Below, one piece after another: positions 6,281-58,249 of a stretch of DNA of 64,000 nucleotides. The translations under genes and the position numbers were made by a program. The notes beneath the pieces were generated by a model, which was not told where the DNA came from, ran no database searches, and saw nothing but the letters and a program-made list of their open reading frames with translations. Position 1 is the stretch's first letter; every line of letters starts with the position of its first letter. The stretch comes from Clostridiales bacterium (lineage in GTDB: Bacteria; Bacillota; Dehalobacteriia; UBA7702), in contig JAXGZS010000001.1 of NCBI GenBank assembly GCA_040776805.1, positions 413,016 through 477,015 of the forward strand, read 5' to 3'.

Positions 6281-6462
6281 TCACTTTACCTTCTAAAGGG
6301 AACCCCCCAAAAATCTTAGGCTAAACCACCGTTAATATAGCATAAAGTAATGTGTTTTACAAGGAATTTTGTGTATCTTTTCTTTGAAATCAGGTTTTTT
6401 TTACATACAAAATATGTTAAACTAAAAGAAAATGCAGAGAAAGGCGAAAGGATTAAGATACG

Positions 6463-7095
6463 ATGGATCAGGAAAAAGAACAAGTCATTGCGTGGCTTAA
6501 GGTATTTGCGAATTTCAGAGACGGCGTCGTCCTGACGGAGATCATTAAAATGGAGGAATCCTTCATCAAAGATCCCCACTGGCTCTCCCCCCTCCATGGC
6601 GAGGAGTACCGTCTTTATCATAGCTTTGAACGAAAGGAGATCTCTCGGGCGGAAGATTTTCCATTCACCGATGAGGGGCCTTTGTGGGACGGTATCTGCA
6701 AAGACGACGCTTCCCGAAAGATTCTCTTCGTGCTGGCCCAGGACACCCCGGAAGCCTTAAAAGGGGATGGCGGCGATATCCCGGAGCAGGAAAAAGCAGC
6801 CATGGCTAAGATATACAAGATGTTCCAATTAGATGGCGATCTTGACGCCTGGTACCATGAATACTATCCCGCCGCCCGGGCTTTGGCCTTTGTCACCATG
6901 CTCAGCAGCCCCTTTGGCCACTGCATGGAAAGGGGCTTTCGCGGGGAACTGATCTTTATGAATATTGTCGATAATTATTTGGGTGTCAAAACAAGCAAAG
7001 CGCAATGGGAGACTTTTTACAAAGAGATGATCGCCAAGATGTTTGGTGAAAGAGGCTTGCCCTATGGTGTTTTTACCGTTGATTTTAAGGTCTGA
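6463..7095 (+). CDS. Hypothetical cytoplasmic protein (210 aa) with no recognisable domain
   Basis: A clean ORF with an AAAGGA-type RBS. Codon usage and composition match the neighbouring genes. Confidence 0.5.
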   Translation: MDQEKEQVIAWLKVFANFRDGVVLTEIIKMEESFIKDPHWLSPLHGEEYRLYHSFERKEISRAEDFPFTDEGPLWDGICKDDASRKILFVLAQDTPEALKGDGGDIPEQEKAAMAKIYKMFQLDGDLDAWYHEYYPAARALAFVTMLSSPFGHCMERGFRGELIFMNIVDNYLGVKTSKAQWETFYKEMIAKMFGERGLPYGVFTVDFKV

Positions 7096-14556: not shown

Positions 14557-14937
14557 ATGGCATCATTTAAAATGGGTAAGATGGTAATGAGAAGCCTGTT
14601 TGGTAAGCCGGCTACCCTCATGTATCCCGTGAAACCCGCAAAAATCACGGAAGCCACCCGTGGTCATATAACCATTGATGTGGATACCTGCATCTTCTGT
14701 GGCATCTGTCAGAAAAAATGCCCCACCAACGCCATCGTCGTTGACCGCAAAGACCGGGTTTGGAGCATTGAACGCATGAGATGCATCCAGTGCAACGCCT
14801 GCGCGGTAAACTGCCCCAAAGACTCGTTGCTGATGGAAACGACGTATACCGCTCCCAGCGCGGTAAAAATTACCGATACCTTCCAGGGGCCGCCCAAAGA
14901 GGAAAAGGCTCCGAAAGAAGCTGCGGCGGAAGCATAA
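14557..14937 (+). CDS. echF: Energy-converting hydrogenase subunit F (2x[4Fe-4S] ferredoxin, NuoI-like)
   Basis: Two CxxCxxCxxxCP motifs are present (CIFCGICQKKCP and CIQCNACAVNCP). Confidence 0.8.
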   Translation: MASFKMGKMVMRSLFGKPATLMYPVKPAKITEATRGHITIDVDTCIFCGICQKKCPTNAIVVDRKDRVWSIERMRCIQCNACAVNCPKDSLLMETTYTAPSAVKITDTFQGPPKEEKAPKEAAAEA

Positions 14938-14960
14938 AGCCACGGAAAACGGTGTAATCT

Positions 14961-15305
14961 ATGCATGAATATCCGATCACCCAGCAGATCATCAAAATCG
15001 CCGAAAATCACGCCAAAAAGGCCGGTTCAGCCAAAGTGACCGCCATCCATTTAGTGGTTGGCGAGTACTCCGGCTTCATCGGCGAGAGTATTCAGATGTA
15101 CTTTGACGTCATCTCTAAAAACACCCTCTGCGATGGCGCGAAAATCAACATTCAAAGAGTAAAGCCAAAACTGCAATGCAATCAGTGCGGCGCCTATTTT
15201 GAAAGGAGAGCGTTTTCCTTTCAATGCCCTGAATGCGGCGGTGAAGGCGGTCCAACGGAGATCGGCAAAGAATTCTATATAGATTCCATTGAAGTTGAAA
15301 CGTGA
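14961..15305 (+). CDS. hypA: Hydrogenase nickel-insertion / maturation factor HypA
   Basis: The N-terminus MHEYPITQQIIKIAE and the zinc ribbon CNQCGAYF...CPECG are typical of HypA (114 aa). Confidence 0.8.
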   Translation: MHEYPITQQIIKIAENHAKKAGSAKVTAIHLVVGEYSGFIGESIQMYFDVISKNTLCDGAKINIQRVKPKLQCNQCGAYFERRAFSFQCPECGGEGGPTEIGKEFYIDSIEVET

Positions 15306-15326
15306 TGAAGTTGAGACTTGCGATGA

Positions 15327-15351
15327 GGGGCAGGCACAACGTGCCTGCCCC
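15327..15351 (+). terminator. Strong GC hairpin (GGGGCAGGCAC-aac-GTGCCTGCCCC) 22 nt after the hypA stop; a terminator or REP-like element, without a U-tail
   Basis: An 11-bp perfect stem, read directly from the sequence. Confidence 0.45.
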
Positions 15352-15358
15352 TTACGGC

Positions 15359-15384
15359 TTCCCAGAGCGGCTAATACACGGCAA
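15359..15384 (+). repeat. 26-nt direct repeat, copy 1 (TTCCCAGAGCGGCTAATACACGGCAA)
   Basis: This matches copy 2 at 15486-15511 with 2 mismatches. Confidence 0.5.
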
Positions 15385-15485
15385 CCCCCCTGCCTCGCGA
15401 CAGCTTGTGTACTTTGGTGTACACGGCGCGGCCGCAAGCCAGTGCGTTCACCGCGTCTAAGCCGTTCTGAAAAGCCTTGAACTTC

Positions 15486-15511
15486 TTCCCAGAGTGGCTG
15501 ATACACGGCAA
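15486..15511 (+). repeat. 26-nt direct repeat, copy 2 (TTCCCAGAGTGGCTGATACACGGCAA)
   Basis: It lies 127 bp downstream of copy 1. A 10/11 inverted-repeat pair (15445-15455 CGTTCACCGCG and 15576-15585 CGCGGTGAAC) surrounds it. Confidence 0.5.
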
Positions 15512-15611
15512 AATGCGTCGAAGCCGCCCCAAGCCTTGCTCGGATTACCAAGATTGACGATAACATCGACTGATCCGCGGTGAACCCGCGTTTTCATATT
15601 GACCCGGTCTT

Positions 15612-15636
15612 CTTGTCGAAACAAGGAGTTTTTTTG
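15612..15636 (+). terminator. Terminator-like hairpin (CTTGTcgaaACAAG followed by T8) in the hypB leader; a second one follows at 15666-15686 (TCCGCaagGGCGGA followed by T6)
   Basis: Two short stem-loops with U-runs lie within 100 nt upstream of the hypB RBS. A third (CCGCGG-tgaac-CCGCGG followed by TTTT) is at 15576-15594. Confidence 0.4.
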
Positions 15637-15712
15637 AAAACGGAGAACATATAAGTAGTGAATCTTCCGCAAGGGCGGATTTTTTAAAAACCGGTTTTCT
15701 AAAGGAGAACAG

Positions 15713-16372
15713 ATGATGCACGACGTGATGAGAATTGATATCAAAGAAAATATCCATGATGAAAACGATCATATCGCAGAACATGTAAAGGAACACTTTT
15801 CCGCCCACGGTATCCTGGTGGTCAACGTGATGGGCGCACCCGGCGTCGGCAAAACAACGACGCTGAAGAATATATTCCAACACCTGCAAACAGCGAAGCC
15901 TTACGTGATTGAGGGCGATATCGAAAGCGATATCGATACCCAGGATCTGCAAAACAGGGGCATCGACACCTTTCAAATCAACACCTTCGGCGCCTGTCAT
16001 CTTGACGCGCCCTTAATCCATGAAGCCATCCATAAGATGGACTTCAACGAGGAGGGGATTCTCTTCATTGAGAACATCGGCAATCTCGTCTGCCCCGCGG
16101 AGTTTTCCATCGGGGAACATGTGAAAATGCTCATCAGCACGGTCACCGAAGGCAGTGATAAACCGTATAAATATCCTTTGGCCTTTGAAAAAGCCGACAT
16201 CATCCTGATCAATAAATGCGATTTGTTGCCTTATGTTGATTTTGATGAGGAGTTCTTTATGAAAGGCGTACGGGCCCAAAACAAAGACGTACCCGTTTTT
16301 AAAGTTTCGGGGAAAACCGGCGAGGGCTACGCGGAAGTCGCCGCCTGGCTGGAAAAACATGATCTCGACTAA
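15713..16372 (+). CDS. hypB: Hydrogenase maturation nickel metallochaperone / GTPase HypB
   Basis: The P-loop GAPGVGKTT, the ENIGNLVCPAEF motif (CPA...) and the NKCDL GTPase motif are all present. The RBS AAAGGAG lies 5 nt upstream. Confidence 0.85.
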   Translation: MMHDVMRIDIKENIHDENDHIAEHVKEHFSAHGILVVNVMGAPGVGKTTTLKNIFQHLQTAKPYVIEGDIESDIDTQDLQNRGIDTFQINTFGACHLDAPLIHEAIHKMDFNEEGILFIENIGNLVCPAEFSIGEHVKMLISTVTEGSDKPYKYPLAFEKADIILINKCDLLPYVDFDEEFFMKGVRAQNKDVPVFKVSGKTGEGYAEVAAWLEKHDLD

Positions 16373-16385
16373 CCGGAGTGAACGG

Positions 16386-18721
16386 ATGCAAACGGAAAAA
16401 ATAACGATCTGGGGCATCGTCCAGGGAGTCGGCTTTCGGCCCTTTATCGCGAAGCTCGGCGACGAAATGGCTATGGCAGGCGTGGTGCGCAATAACGGCG
16501 GTCTCGTGGAGATCACCGTCACCGATACGCAAGCGCGCATCGACGCTTTTGTCGCCGCCATCAAGGCGCGAAAGCCTTTGCCCGCGGAAATCGTCCATCT
16601 ACGCAGAGAACGAAAACCGTTTCAGGAATTTGAGGGCTTCTCCATTGCCGCCAGCGGCGAAATCGACGACGAAGCGCCGATGATCCCGGCGGATCTTGCC
16701 CTTTGCCCCGCTTGTTTCAATGACTTGAACGACAAAGCAAATCCCCGCTACCGCCATCCTTTTATCAGCTGTATGGCCTGTGGCCCCCGGTATACGATCA
16801 TTGACAAAATCCCTTATGACCGGGCGCATACGGCCATGGCCGATTTCCCCATGTGCAGCTTTTGTGAAAAAGAGTACACCGATAGAAATGACCGCCGCTA
16901 TCACGCCCAGACCATCTCCTGTCATGATTGCGGCCCCCAGCTGAAAAAATATCAAAGTGATCTTGAAAAGGAGGACGCCGTCAAAGAAGCTGTCTCCCTC
17001 CTCTCAAAAGGTGAGATCATTGCCGTAAAAGGCGTCGGCGGCTACAATTTTATCGCGTCTCCCTTTTGCCATGAGGCCGTGGTGCGGCTGCGACAACTCA
17101 AGGGCCGGGAGGAAAAGCCTTTTGCCGTGATGTTCTACGATGAAACCCAGGTCAGAGCGTATTGCGATCTGACGGAGGAGGAAAGCGCCCTTTTAAACAG
17201 CGCCGCCCGCCCCATCGTGCTCCTGGAAACGAAGAAAACGGCTTTTTCCCCGGAAGTCAATAAGACGAGCCGCTACACCGGCTGTTTTTGCCGAGCATGG
17301 GTTTGCAGTATCTCCTCATCGAAGCTTGCGGCCCCCTCATCGTCACCAGCGGCAATCTCTCCGATATGCCGATGATCCGTGAGGATGAAAAGATGTTTCG
17401 TCTCTATGAAGAGAAAAAGTAGCTCCTTGCCGCCGTTTTTTATCACGACCGCGGCATTCGTATGACCGTTGACGATTCCGTGGTGCGGGTTATTGATCAT
17501 CAGCCCCAAATGATCCGCCGGGCCAAGGGCTACGCCCCGGTACCGCTTTTTATCGCCGGTGACGCGCCCCTTAAAAAAGAGGATCAGATCTTGGCCCTTG
17601 GCGGTCAGCTCAAAGCGGCGTTTACCTTGAGCAAAGGCCATTTTGCCTATGTCAGCCAATTTTTCGGCGATCTCGACGCCGAAGAGATCCGCAGGAATTA
17701 TGTGGAAACCATCGAGGATTTAAAGGCGCTTTTTCATATCACGCCGCAACTTCTCGTTACCGATATGCATCCCCTCTACTTCACTTACAATTTTGCCAAG
17801 GAATACGGGGAAAAACACCAAATCCCGATTTTGCGGGTGCAGCATCACCACGCCCACGTGGCTTCGGTCATGGCCGAGCACGGCCTTGGCGGCGACGTCA
17901 TCGGCGTCAGCTTTGACGGCACCGGCTACGGTGCTGACGGGACCATCTGGGGCGGTGAATTTCTCGTCTGCAACGGCGCAAAATATCTAAGAGCCGCCCA
18001 TTTACAGACGATTCCCATGATCGGCGGCGATCATTCCATGAAGGAAGCCTGGAAAACGGCGATGTGTTACATGGCCTCGGTGGGAGGTGCGGCGGAAAAA
18101 TCCCCCCTTTCTACCGATAACCGTTACGCGGTGGTCAAAGCCGGCTTGTATCATGGGATCAACGGCATCGGCAGTTCCAGTATGGGACGGCTTTTCGACG
18201 CTGTGGCGGCGCTCCTCGGCATTGCTATGGAAAACCGTTACGAGGGAGAATGCGCCATTATGCTGGAGAACGCCGCGGCCCGCGCCGAAAAGCTGGGCCT
18301 CTCTCCCCATAAGATGGTCTTTATGTATTGGAACGACGGCGGTGTTTGGCAGATTTCCGCGGCTCCGATCCTCCAGGCCATTGCCCGCGGTCTCGACCAG
18401 GGCGTCGCCATCGACTGCATGGCCCTGGGCTTTCACCAAGCGGTGGGGGACATGGTCGCCGCCTTGGCGGAAAAGATCAGGGAAGAGGTTCCTACGAACC
18501 AAGTGGCATTGACAGGCGGTGTTTTTCAGAATAAAATCTTAATGGAATATACCTTGTCCCTTTTGCGGACAAAGGGTTTTGATGTATATTACAATATATC
18601 TGTCGGTCCCAATGACGGTGGCGTCTCTCTGGGACAAACATATATTGCGATGGAATATCTGAAGGAGGATCAACATGTGCATTGCGATTCCGGGCAAACT
18701 CATGACCATGGAAGGCAGTAA
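16386..18721 (+). pseudogene. hypF: hypF (carbamoyltransferase HypF), disrupted by a -1 frameshift in a T5 run near 17285-17289 and an in-frame TAG at 17420-17422
   Basis: The acylphosphatase domain (WGIVQGVGFRPF), two Cx2C-x18-Cx2C zinc fingers and a YrdC-like segment (GEIIAVKGVGGYNF) are read in frame 0 up to about 17283. The continuation LPSMGLQYLLIEACGPLIVTSGNLSDMPM...EEKK is in frame 2 and stops at TAG. LLAAVFYHDRGIRMTVDDSVVR...RRAKGYAP and the Kae1-like C-terminal domain (HHHAH...) then continue in the same frame to 18721. Confidence 0.7.
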
Positions 18722-56462: not shown

Positions 56463-57398
56463 ATGGCAAAGGTTTTTTGTGAAATTTGCGGCGCCAGCCT
56501 CGTGTCTTCAAGATACAGCACGTTATATACATGTGAAAAATGCGGGATGAAGTATACCCGCACCAAGGTCAGGAAAATGCTGGCCCGGGGGCCTCGCTTT
56601 CGTACCGCTACCATCGGCGAGCCGGAAGAGCTGGAAAAATGGTATCAGGAAATGGATAGGCATATCGGCAACGAAAATCTGAAAGATGCCGAAGATGTGG
56701 CCCATCGTATTTTGGAAATCGACCCCGACGACGAAAAAGCCGACGCATTTTTGGATTCCCTCCTGAAATTGAAGAAGGAATTCCTGATCGAACGCGGTAT
56801 TCTGATCAAGTATTCCGGGGACGACGAGGAGCTGACCATTCCCGTGGGTGTGACTGAAATCGGGGAAAAAGCCTTTTCCAATCATGCGGAACTCAAAAAG
56901 ATCGTTGTCCACAACGGCGTGCGTTCCATCGGTGAAGAGGCTTTTAGCGGTTGTACCAACTTGAAACAGGCGGTGCTTCCCGATACGCTGCATTTCGTCG
57001 GCTACCGCGCCTTTGCCGACTGCGTGAAGTTAGAGCAAGTCAACTTAGAAGACAGTGTGAGATTCCTTGGCAATTATGCTTTTTATCATTGCGAAAAGCT
57101 GCAAGCCATCCATATTCCCAAAAATCTGCCCACCATCGGCAAGCGCACCTTTTGCGGGTGTCGCAGTTTGACGAAGGTGAAGCTCCCTCCCCGGGTCAAA
57201 GGCATTGGCAACAGCGCGTTTAAAGACTGCGTGAGTTTAAAGGAGATCGGCCCTTTGGACGAAGTGATGTTCCTTGGTGAAAACGCTTTTGCCGGTTGCG
57301 ACCAACTAAAAAACATAACGGTTCCCGCCCGTTTTATGAATAATGGCTGGGAAAAATATCAAAGCGGAAATACCGATCCCAAACAGCAAGATCGTTAA
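56463..57398 (+). CDS. Zinc-ribbon plus leucine-rich-repeat (BspA/LRR_5-type) protein
   Basis: An N-terminal CEICGA...CEKCG zinc ribbon is followed by repeats of the form ...IGEEAFSGCTNLKQAVLP..., typical of BspA-like LRRs. The promoter is TTGAAA-17-TATAAT with an extended -10 TG. Confidence 0.65.
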   Translation: MAKVFCEICGASLVSSRYSTLYTCEKCGMKYTRTKVRKMLARGPRFRTATIGEPEELEKWYQEMDRHIGNENLKDAEDVAHRILEIDPDDEKADAFLDSLLKLKKEFLIERGILIKYSGDDEELTIPVGVTEIGEKAFSNHAELKKIVVHNGVRSIGEEAFSGCTNLKQAVLPDTLHFVGYRAFADCVKLEQVNLEDSVRFLGNYAFYHCEKLQAIHIPKNLPTIGKRTFCGCRSLTKVKLPPRVKGIGNSAFKDCVSLKEIGPLDEVMFLGENAFAGCDQLKNITVPARFMNNGWEKYQSGNTDPKQQDR

Positions 57399-57422: not shown

Positions 57423-57451
57423 AGAAGCACAGAGCGGTAAGCTCTGTGCTT
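57423..57451. repeat. Hairpin repeat copy A (GAAGCACAGAGC-ggtaa-GCTCTGTGCTTC)
   Basis: A perfect 12-bp stem. A near-identical copy lies at 57624-57653. Confidence 0.55.
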
Positions 57452-57623
57452 CAGACTGTAGACAAAATACGCGTCAGCGGATTTTGGGCTACAGGATGAT
57501 AGGCTGCCGAGAAAGGCTTAGACACGGTGAACACTTTGGCCTGCGGCTGCGCCGTGTACATAGAAGTACATAAGCTGTCGTAGGCCAAAGGGTTCGCCGC
57601 GTATCAGACTTTGTCGACGGCCT

Positions 57624-57653
57624 AAAGCACAGAGTGTTAAGCTCTGTGCTTTT
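57624..57653. repeat. Hairpin repeat copy B (AAGCACAGAG-tgttaa-GCTCTGTGCTT followed by TTT); it acts as a plus-strand terminator
   Basis: Same stem sequence as copy A, followed by TTTACTTTG. Confidence 0.55.
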
Positions 57654-57664
57654 ACTTTGCTTAT

Positions 57665-58249
57665 TTAACGGAGATAATCCGCGTAAATCTGGTTGAAGTC
57701 GGAAAATGTCACGGAGCCGACGATGGTTTCGGCAAGGAGGATTTCGTTTTCCGGCGTCCCTTCGGGATGGGTATAAACCGCGTAGAAGCGGATGCCTTCG
57801 TTGGGGTGGTAGATGAAGAATTCTTCCACATAAGTTTTGCCGTCCTCTGTGGCGGTACCGGCAAAACGGATGCCCTTTTCCTTGCCTTCGGTCACGGCGA
57901 TGCTGTCGGGGTCGAAGGTCATTTGCTGTTCCTTGGTTACAACGTCCATGGTTTTTTTGGCGCAGGCGGAGAGGGACAGATTATCGACACCCCCCACCTC
58001 CAAGGTGAAGCGCAGGGCAGTATCATTCTTGAGATCAATGAGGGTTAACGATTGTTTTTCTTCTCTATAAACCTGCCAGACGCCGTCGAGTACTAAGGTG
58101 TAATGGTCATAGGGATGGCTGTACTTTAGGGTGCGGGGTGTTTCCACCTCTGTCAGCAGGGGCAGTTTGTTGGCGGCGATCAGCAGGCCGACGAAGACGG
58201 CGAGCCAAAACAGGATCAGCCATTGTGGTTTCTTGAATTTTCGTTCCAT
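57665..58249 (-). CDS. Hypothetical membrane-anchored protein (N-terminal TM helix plus extracytoplasmic domain)
   Basis: Its start overlaps the upstream polyprenyl synthetase stop in a TGATG. Confidence 0.5.
   Translation of the reverse strand: MERKFKKPQWLILFWLAVFVGLLIAANKLPLLTEVETPRTLKYSHPYDHYTLVLDGVWQVYREEKQSLTLIDLKNDTALRFTLEVGGVDNLSLSACAKKTMDVVTKEQQMTFDPDSIAVTEGKEKGIRFAGTATEDGKTYVEEFFIYHPNEGIRFYAVYTHPEGTPENEILLAETIVGSVTFSDFNQIYADYLR

Follow-up and report, generated by a model that had tools for sequence, protein, structure and literature searches.

A long hypA-hypB spacer that probably consists mostly of decayed insertions of a MITE-like, stem-loop-targeting element

In the window (the whole stretch of 64,000 nucleotides that was analysed) a group-4 [NiFe] hydrogenase cluster is followed by hypA and hypB, and then by hypF, hypC and hypD; hypF has an apparent frameshift near 17285. 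A first-pass annotation of this DNA noticed that hypA and hypB, which are usually adjacent, are 407 bp apart here. It offered three explanations for the gap: a cis-regulatory leader of hypB, perhaps a nickel-responsive riboswitch, binding sites for a regulator, or a miniature repeat element whose insertion had split the hyp operon. The question raised by the locus was therefore what fills this spacer. We concluded that it is probably made up, for the most part, of decayed insertions of a stem-loop-targeting, MITE-like non-coding element, for which IS1272/IS1182 provides the nearest known mechanism.

The hypA-hypB spacer and its counterparts in relatives

Both genes are open reading frames on the plus strand and were confirmed by Pfam: hypA at 14961-15305 (HypA, 3.8e-31) and hypB at 15713-16372 (cobW/HypB, 4.8e-16; 100% identical to protein P0001). 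The spacer between them thus measures 407 nt (15306-15712), as annotated. The structural features ascribed to it were also real. After hypA a terminator-type GC hairpin on the plus strand (15327-15351) has a perfect stem of 11 bp, or 12 bp with the flanking A-T pair, and in the window it lacks a U tract (CCCCTTACGG). The direct repeat, annotated with 26 nt, comprises 27 nt with two mismatches (15358-15384 and 15485-15511), and 100 shuffles of the window produced no match of this kind. The inverted 10-mer pair turned out to be the core of two 19-nt arms (15446-15464 and 15567-15585) with a complementarity of 79%.

Three hairpins followed by T runs precede hypB on the plus strand, and all three pass the consensus for intrinsic terminators (on the transcribed strand, a GC-rich stem and then a U tract), so that they are predicted terminators. 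T1 (15566-15590; consensus-scan match 15576-15590) pairs CGCGG with CCGCG before TTTT, T2 (15609-15636; scan match 15609-15628) has a U7 tail, and T3 (15666-15686; scan match 15666-15679) has a U6 tail and lies 21 nt before the ribosome-binding site of hypB. This site, read from the sequence as AAAGGAGAA, occupies 15701-15712 on the plus strand together with its spacing to the start codon and is conserved in all relatives. Over the surrounding 2-kb region the consensus scan detected 8 terminator-like sites, against 2.6 ± 2.0 in shuffles. The description of the spacer as highly structured was borne out as well, since it folded better than shuffles on both strands, with z = -4.9 on the plus strand and z = -6.5 on the minus strand.

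Orthologous loci were reached via HypB homologues; the closest named relative genome was that of Peptococcaceae bacterium UBA7702. The length of the spacer varied strongly among them. It measured 264 nt in L020 (HypB 96% identical to that of the window), 503 nt in L001 and L002 (95%), 220 nt in L004 (90%), 80 nt in L006 and L007 (89%), 80 nt in L016 and L017 (82%) and approx. 75 nt in L018 and L019 (81%). The expectation that the two genes should be adjacent thus agrees with the relatives whose HypB is 81-89% identical, in which the spacer is about 75-80 nt long. Such short spacers, found in the outgroups and in some relatives, contain the hypA stop codon, a covarying GC hairpin and the ribosome-binding site in front of hypB. 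Apart from the ribosome-binding site, the post-hypA hairpin was the sole part of the spacer conserved in all relatives; over nine loci, 7 of its 13 pairs showed compensatory changes. In L016 it was directly followed by a T-rich run and then by the ribosome-binding site. Because this hairpin alone is common to all relatives, the ancestral state would have been hypA, one terminator-type hairpin, the ribosome-binding site and hypB, with a spacer of about 80 nt. Judged by these orthologous spacers, the remainder of the window spacer is a lineage-specific addition.

The whole insert was absent from the hyp locus in L004, L006, L007, L016 and L018. Long spacers differed among themselves: the long hairpin described below was present in the window and in L001 and absent from L020 and L026. 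Several assemblies broke within the region, and every one of the short Logan contigs begins in the spacer. L003, L005 and seven of seven P0006 contigs start at most about 420 nt upstream of hypB, and of these contigs only L026 extends to the end of hypA; at least two of the contig starts adjoin sites that vary among contigs. A short spacer allele (L026) and a long one (L022) coexist, and as far as these contigs tell, the hyp spacer region is heterogeneous within populations.

A long-hairpin unit and its second copy in the window

Part of the spacer is occupied by an imperfect palindrome of about 123 nt (15356-15478), recognized by blastn, full-length alignment and nhmmer. Its sense strand is the minus strand, so that it lies antisense to the operon. 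It holds the first direct repeat and the left half of the inverted pair. By blastn within the window this unit matched 57510-57580 on the opposite strand (84.5% over 71 nt, E 4.7e-9), about 42 kb away at an unrelated locus. The three full units, two in the window and one in L001, could be aligned over their entire length. Between the two window copies 91 of 123 positions were identical (74%), and the alignment score of 53 lay approx. 13 standard deviations above that of shuffles (-14 ± 5). A profile search with nhmmer recovered both full window copies, a partial copy at 15485-15525 (E 1.7e-4) and an 83-nt partial copy in L001, and it detected no further copies in the 64 kb.

The partial copy represents what is left in the window of a second unit in tandem, namely about 45 nt of its right arm (15485-15529, minus strand); it holds the second direct repeat. 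L001 carries its 83-nt copy at the same place. There the direct repeat extends over 83 nt, and its first copy forms the left half of an inverted repeat with 45-nt arms. Since the first repeat of the window is an arm of the 123-nt palindrome, and the palindrome has a second copy elsewhere, we concluded that the direct repeats represent the right arms of two units in tandem, the second of which is nearly complete in L001 and cut down in the window. L020 and L026 keep one arm only, a pattern compatible with deletion between the repeats. The long-range inverted 10-mer joins the other arm of the first unit with T1. By eye, T1 (CTGATCCGCGGTGAAC) was identical to the right arm of the 57.5-kb copy at 17 of 20 positions, and the corresponding nhmmer match was not significant (E 1.3). 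By this resemblance T1 looks like a further element arm. The origin of 15530-15712 is explained only in part.

The hyp copy lies 4 nt from the conserved post-hypA hairpin, which it adjoins in the same way as the second copy adjoins its own hairpin (AGCC-GTA-hairpin and GGCC-TA-hairpin, respectively); the distance between unit and GC hairpin is 2-4 nt in the two window copies, at the same end of the unit in each. The hyp copy is without the left terminal module, and no target duplication is visible at this locus. An intact second post-hypA hairpin was looked for on the far side of the insert and not found. We infer insertion at the hyp locus by analogy and from the relatives.

The second copy provided the complete element. 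It spans 173 nt on the plus strand (57452-57624) and consists of a 48-nt 5' module followed by the long hairpin, with the termini CAGACTGTAGAC ... GTCGACGGCCTA. The terminal inverted repeats are about 12 nt long and imperfect (CAGACTGTAGAC against TAGGCCGTCGAC, 8 of 12 positions). A terminus pattern (left YAGNNYGTMGAC, right GTCKACGGYCTR) occurred four times in the window, against an expectation of 0.26; both ends of this insert are among the four. The copy is flanked by a 27-nt direct repeat (57425-57451 and 57625-57651), 93% identical with both differences in the loop. Each repeat forms a perfect hairpin, AAGCACAGAG(CGGT/TGTT)AAGCTCTGTGCTT. An A run lies before the first hairpin and a T-rich run after the second, and the whole is situated between convergent genes, one for a BspA-type LRR protein that ends at 57398 and one without known function that ends at 57665. 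Read from its sequence, this arrangement is what remains if a bidirectional terminator is duplicated around an insertion. No Rfam family covered the unit at this second locus.

The first-pass annotation had proposed a search for genome-wide copies of the repeat. An exact pattern of the left arm, scanned against genome contigs, was found at the hyp locus of UBA7702, with no second occurrence in that genome, and in seven scattered single matches. The arms differ between copies, so the exact scan is uninformative about variant copies and would miss those like the one at 57.5 kb.

Metagenome homologues and the conserved apex

The most conserved stretch of the unit is its apex; the arms differ between copies. 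In the hyp unit the apical motif CGCCGTGTACACCAAAGTACACAAG was located by pattern match at 15404-15428 (minus strand) and consists of an internal loop (5'-GCC / AA-3'), a 6-bp stem and a hexaloop. We scanned metagenome contigs with the apex pattern CGCCGYGTACANNNARGTACRYAAG and obtained 29 loci. Two sequence families among them (5 loci) evidently code for protein and appear to be chance matches. The other matches mostly lay at the tip of long hairpins, and the motif topped long hairpins in at least 20 metagenome loci. For all 21 distinct matches taken together, positions flanking the motif paired at 6.8 of 10, against 3.8 of 10 in offset controls. Five apex loci, belonging to three distinct sequence groups, were hairpins in the spacers of rRNA operons, and all five were in the sense orientation of the rRNA. 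For these hairpins and the others known by their apex, a 25-nt motif and a shared architecture are the sole basis of comparison, which makes their homology to the window element tentative. No Rfam family covered the unit in the at least 20 metagenome apex loci, even at E ≤ 1. Likenesses that we presumed to exist between the element and a PyrR site (CCAGAG.GGCU) or group II intron domain V were dropped, as neither gave an Rfam match.

Closer homologues were present in one metagenome, four contigs of which carry a 153-nt element, mutually 87-93% identical. These elements and the 173-nt insert of the window could be aligned end to end, and the termini YAGNNYGTMGAC and GTCKACGGYCTR were common to both. 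Each of the four copies was flanked by a different, locus-specific hairpin. The duplicated hairpin measured 31 nt in L042 and 28 nt in L051, 100% identical in both cases, and 15 nt in L030; in L043 the duplication extended over 55 nt and took in the first element module as well as the hairpin. Two of the four copies lay between convergent genes. Together with the 57.5-kb copy, all five intact insertions were thus flanked by target duplications, of 15-31 nt covering whole hairpins and of 55 nt in L043, and the five hairpins were all different. With these four copies added to the two full copies and the remnants in the 64 kb of the window, and with the presence or absence of the insert at orthologous hyp loci, the comparison of sequences shows the element to be a dispersed repeat that is variably present at the hyp locus among relatives. 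Searches for the element in plasmids (blastn) and in viral contigs (pattern) were empty.

The consensus of the long hairpin contains 32 pairs, 12 of them with compensatory changes. In seven of seven members the strand carrying the motif in sense folded better than its complement, by 12.6 kcal/mol on average. At the top of long covarying hairpins in many metagenome lineages the apex was invariant: its internal loop reads 5'-GCC / AA-3', its 6-bp stem GYGUAC/GUACRY and its hexaloop A-N-N-R-A-R. Variable arms with a conserved apex, in combination with strand-biased folding, hint at a function of single-stranded RNA or ssDNA, which a plain DDE-MITE would not explain. As a tentative extension, the unit might belong to an undescribed, widespread superfamily of mobile long hairpins, whose invariant apex would serve an RNA or ssDNA function, such as a recognition module for a dedicated protein, and whose insertion would duplicate whole terminator hairpins.

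Mechanism, known systems and alternative readings

The claim that the hyp operon was split by insertion of a miniature repeat element is the one that we retained, on account of the 123-nt palindrome, its second copy in the window, its presence or absence in relatives and its metagenome homologues. The element would consist of the long hairpin of about 123 nt with the conserved apex, the short 5' module and the imperfect terminal inverted repeats of about 12 nt. It would integrate at an extruded DNA stem-loop, where strands would be joined at both 5' feet, and repair would duplicate the whole stem-loop. Starting from the ancestral spacer of about 80 nt, insertion would have taken place at the foot of the post-hypA hairpin, at least twice in tandem, and would have parted this hairpin from whatever came after it. 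The copies would then have decayed via deletions between their own repeats, leaving in the window the full hairpin at 15356-15478, the first 45 nt or so of the second unit at 15485-15529 and the arm-like T1, so that the direct repeats and the long-range inverted repeat would be the arms of these decayed units. As the element is itself rich in hairpins, one would expect it to be inserted in tandem or nested, as at the hyp locus.

MITEs of the ERIC/Correia/RUP type can alter mRNA processing or termination. The hyp insert would be selfish DNA with side effects: it would place a very stable hairpin in the hypA-hypB transcript (approx. -57 kcal/mol for the long hairpin in mRNA orientation), and together with T1-T3 it would reduce or process read-through into hypBFCDE.

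Stem-loop targeting has been documented for IS1272, a member of the IS1182 family, which inserts into unrelated inverted-repeat or stem-loop targets, frequently located shortly after the 3' end of a gene (Wan et al. 2017, PMC5678879). The outcome observed for IS1272 was replacement of the target stem-loop, that is its deletion, with no duplication; the model of the same authors includes an alternative pathway in which strands are joined at the 5' feet of the extruded stem-loops and the entire stem-loop becomes duplicated (PMC5678879). The whole-hairpin duplications at the intact insertions are the outcome expected from this 5'-foot joining. Like IS1272, the element would target stem-loops of arbitrary sequence. 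Tandem duplication of a terminal segment of about 25 bp has also been reported for IS1272 (PMC5678879), and a terminal segment is duplicated in L043 and perhaps at the hyp locus. In contrast to IS1272, a 1.9-kb autonomous IS (PMC5678879), the element is non-coding and only 154-174 nt long, it duplicates the stem-loop, and no IS1182-like end sequence is linked to it. A transposase linked to the element was not found.

In its size and in being non-coding the element resembles bacterial MITEs. According to a review of prokaryotic MITEs (PMC10969869), ERIC/IRU, Correia/NEMIS of Neisseria and the pneumococcal RUP, BOX and SPRITE are similarly small, non-coding and intergenic, form long imperfect palindromes, are co-transcribed with their neighbours, occur clustered or nested, and vary in presence between strains. 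In these families the terminal repeats are conserved and the duplications short and of fixed length (TA, for example), whereas the present element is most conserved at its apex, has covarying arms and duplicates a complete hairpin, the length of which varies. A search of this review (PMC10969869) for terminators, palindromes and stem-loops gave no passage on a family of this kind. Literature searches for the sequence string of the element and for terminator duplication returned nothing relevant, and the family seems uncatalogued.

What makes the element family worth attention is its whole-hairpin target duplication, conserved apex, strand-biased folding and absence from Rfam; the hyp spacer itself is of modest interest. 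The duplications of variable length, each equal to the target terminator hairpin, would be a clean natural signature of stem-loop-directed integration. If confirmed genome-wide, they would document directly in genomes a transposition pathway that up to now exists only as a model for IS1182-type elements, and they would show how intrinsic terminators between genes can be multiplied or displaced. The apical RNA/DNA motif would then be a conserved one missing from Rfam, with a binding partner to be sought.

Among the other explanations, the one that survives best, though we regard it as unlikely, is a cis-regulatory leader or attenuator for hypB, possibly nickel-responsive, in which alternative pairings, for example of 15446-15464 with the 5' half of T1, decide about termination at T1-T3. 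Known intrinsic terminators and attenuators that separate the structural from the accessory genes in an operon have counterparts here in the post-hypA hairpin (with its U-rich run in L016) and in T1-T3, each a stem followed by a U tract, even though the ancestral hairpin of the window has lost its U tract. Three sites of hairpin plus T run on the plus strand within 140 nt of hypB stand out from the background of 2.6 per 2 kb, and the excess of structure over shuffles points in the same direction. T-run hairpins are conserved in the window, L001, L020 and L005, and T2 is conserved in L001, L003, L005 and L020. In the group with 93% identical HypB, T3 has a different sequence and is still a hairpin with a T run, with one compensatory pair seen by eye; some selection for structure upstream of the ribosome-binding site is therefore possible. 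A sigma-70-like promoter for hypB was found neither by scan nor by eye in the spacer, including the part between the hairpins and hypB, so that transcription of hypB presumably has to pass T1-T3 and attenuation is plausible.

Other results argued against such a leader. Over 14900-16100 Rfam returned matches at chance level only (E ≥ 0.9), with no family at E ≤ 10 for the spacer, and a known riboswitch such as NiCo was supported neither by a covariance-model match nor by conservation at the orthologous position. The whole module is absent from relatives with HypB of 81-90% identity in which the operon is the same. L020 and L026 lack the putative anti-terminator partner, which is part of the mobile unit, and the strand on which the unit preferably folds is antisense to the operon. 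A conserved leader is contradicted by the lack of this sequence in orthologous spacers and by its mobile core. The proposal of a nickel-responsive riboswitch is not supported, and regulator binding sites are superfluous as an explanation of the repeats. Being explained as insertion debris, the long spacer should not be pursued as a nickel riboswitch. The segment 15530-15712, which includes T1-T3, is common to relatives with at least 92% HypB identity and partly to L004, and a metagenome scan with the module from T2 to the ribosome-binding site gave 0 matches. T1-T3 are lineage-specific and may, as predicted terminators, attenuate read-through.

Less probable still is a REP/REPIN-type element of two inverted REPs moved as ssDNA by a RAYT (an IS200/IS605-like Y1 transposase), with the solo arms as decayed REPINs. 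IS608-type elements have tetranucleotide targets, which are resembled by the TTAC adjoining the hyp copy and the TTTA at the second copy. The strand-specific folding advantage would also suit a REPIN. REPIN/RAYT systems (PMC3337134) share with the element the long hairpin of two inverted arms, solo arms nearby as decay products and an extragenic position near terminators. Y1 transposition, however, gives no target duplication, whereas all five intact copies are flanked by duplications of 15-55 nt. In REPINs the conserved part is the REP arms, whereas in this element it is the apex, and its arms differ between copies. A RAYT gene was not seen.

The weakest candidate, which we consider very improbable, is the wreck of a lineage-specific small protein gene that is intact in relatives, with DNA repeats that reflect a peptide repeat, (F)PERLIHGK. 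A frame ending in KLIALLGKEFKFGDNIDWFAVKPRFHIDPIFLSKQGVFLKTENI and a stop codon was open in 6 of 7 contigs of the 93% group, all that cover it; partial genes were predicted there by the gene caller, open frames comprised 63 aa in L026 (beginning 4 nt after the hypA stop) and at least 94 codons in L005 and L022, and in the window the frame is broken by frameshifts and by a TGA (15570-15572) that is TGG in relatives. Against this, the 94-aa frame from L005 had no homologue among 5.8 billion proteins and no Pfam family, the frame is without a Shine-Dalgarno sequence, a parent gene was not found in the window, synonymous and non-synonymous variants among relatives stood at about 4:6 with a variant density equal to that of flanking non-coding DNA, L020 carries non-conservative changes between intact hairpins, and the repeated segments are arms of a non-coding element found elsewhere.

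Apical motif in rRNA operon spacers

Unrelated metagenome lineages were found to have, in the spacers of their rRNA operons, long hairpins with the apical motif, the conserved 25-nt apex of the MITE-like element's own hairpin. The motif was located at five loci, on contigs L038 (141-165), L044 (2324-2348), L046 (3948-3972), L050 (1603-1627) and L041 (1935-1959). The hairpins were placed between tRNA genes or approx. 55 nt upstream of the 23S gene, all of them in the rRNA sense, and many shared the internal loop 5'-GGCGCGA / GAGCAACG-3'. When compared with Rfam, no family covering these rRNA-spacer hairpins was detected.

Additionally, a tandem pair of units of approx. 107 nt each was observed on metagenome contig L035 (640-900). 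Each unit forms a hairpin with an apex as in the element (GGTCCAGATAC-CGCCGTGTACAATAAGGTACATAAG-GTATCGGGACC). Contig L043, which bears a related element, also contains a Moco (molybdenum/tungsten cofactor) riboswitch at 6372-6490; it has no connection with the element finding.

The hypA-hypB spacer in relatives and populations

In relatives with a HypB approx. 93% identical, the spacer was filled by an open frame. On the hypB-carrying Logan contig L026 (12-203) this frame encodes 63 aa (MRAGTTCLPS...KTENI*) and starts 4 nt past the hypA stop, while on L005 (7-291) and L022 (75-359) it comprises at least 94 codons. The window counterpart (15535-15654) is interrupted by a TGA at 15570-15572, where the relatives have TGG. 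The homologue search with the relatives' frame gave no match anywhere, and no Pfam family was found.

The Logan contigs, assembled from short reads, on which this lineage's hypB is found (L003, L005, L021-L027) start at hypB or up to approx. 420 nt upstream of it. Most of them begin within the spacer, and some begin beside variable sites; the contig starts indicate that spacer alleles co-exist in the sampled populations.

Short repeated segments at the spacer edges

The hypB RBS region AAAGGAGAACAGAT (15701-15714) has a diverged direct copy, AACGGAGAACATAT, 62 nt upstream (15639-15652), and the two bracket the segment with the terminator-like hairpin T3 (15666-15686, plus strand). The copy pair looks as if a small segment had been inserted or duplicated at the RBS in an additional event. 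The same arrangement was seen in the relative's locus L004, surrounding a different insert. Within 15290-15320, the final 15 nt of hypA, TGAAGTTGAAACGTG, are repeated directly past the stop codon as TGAAGTTGAGACTTG; the relatives' loci L001 and L020 have no such copy, L004 has a similar one.

The hypF reading frame

In the window hypF (16359-18721) is present as two ORFs, 16359-17375 and 17462-18721; in relatives it is a single gene of 775-778 aa. Comparison with the relatives over 17255-17315 revealed one base fewer in the window at approx. 17285, beside a T5/T6 run (GGCTG-TTTTTGCC versus GGTAGTTTTTTGCC or GGCTGCTTTTTGCC). The split is either a genuine frameshift or a homopolymer sequencing error; if real, it would cripple hydrogenase maturation.
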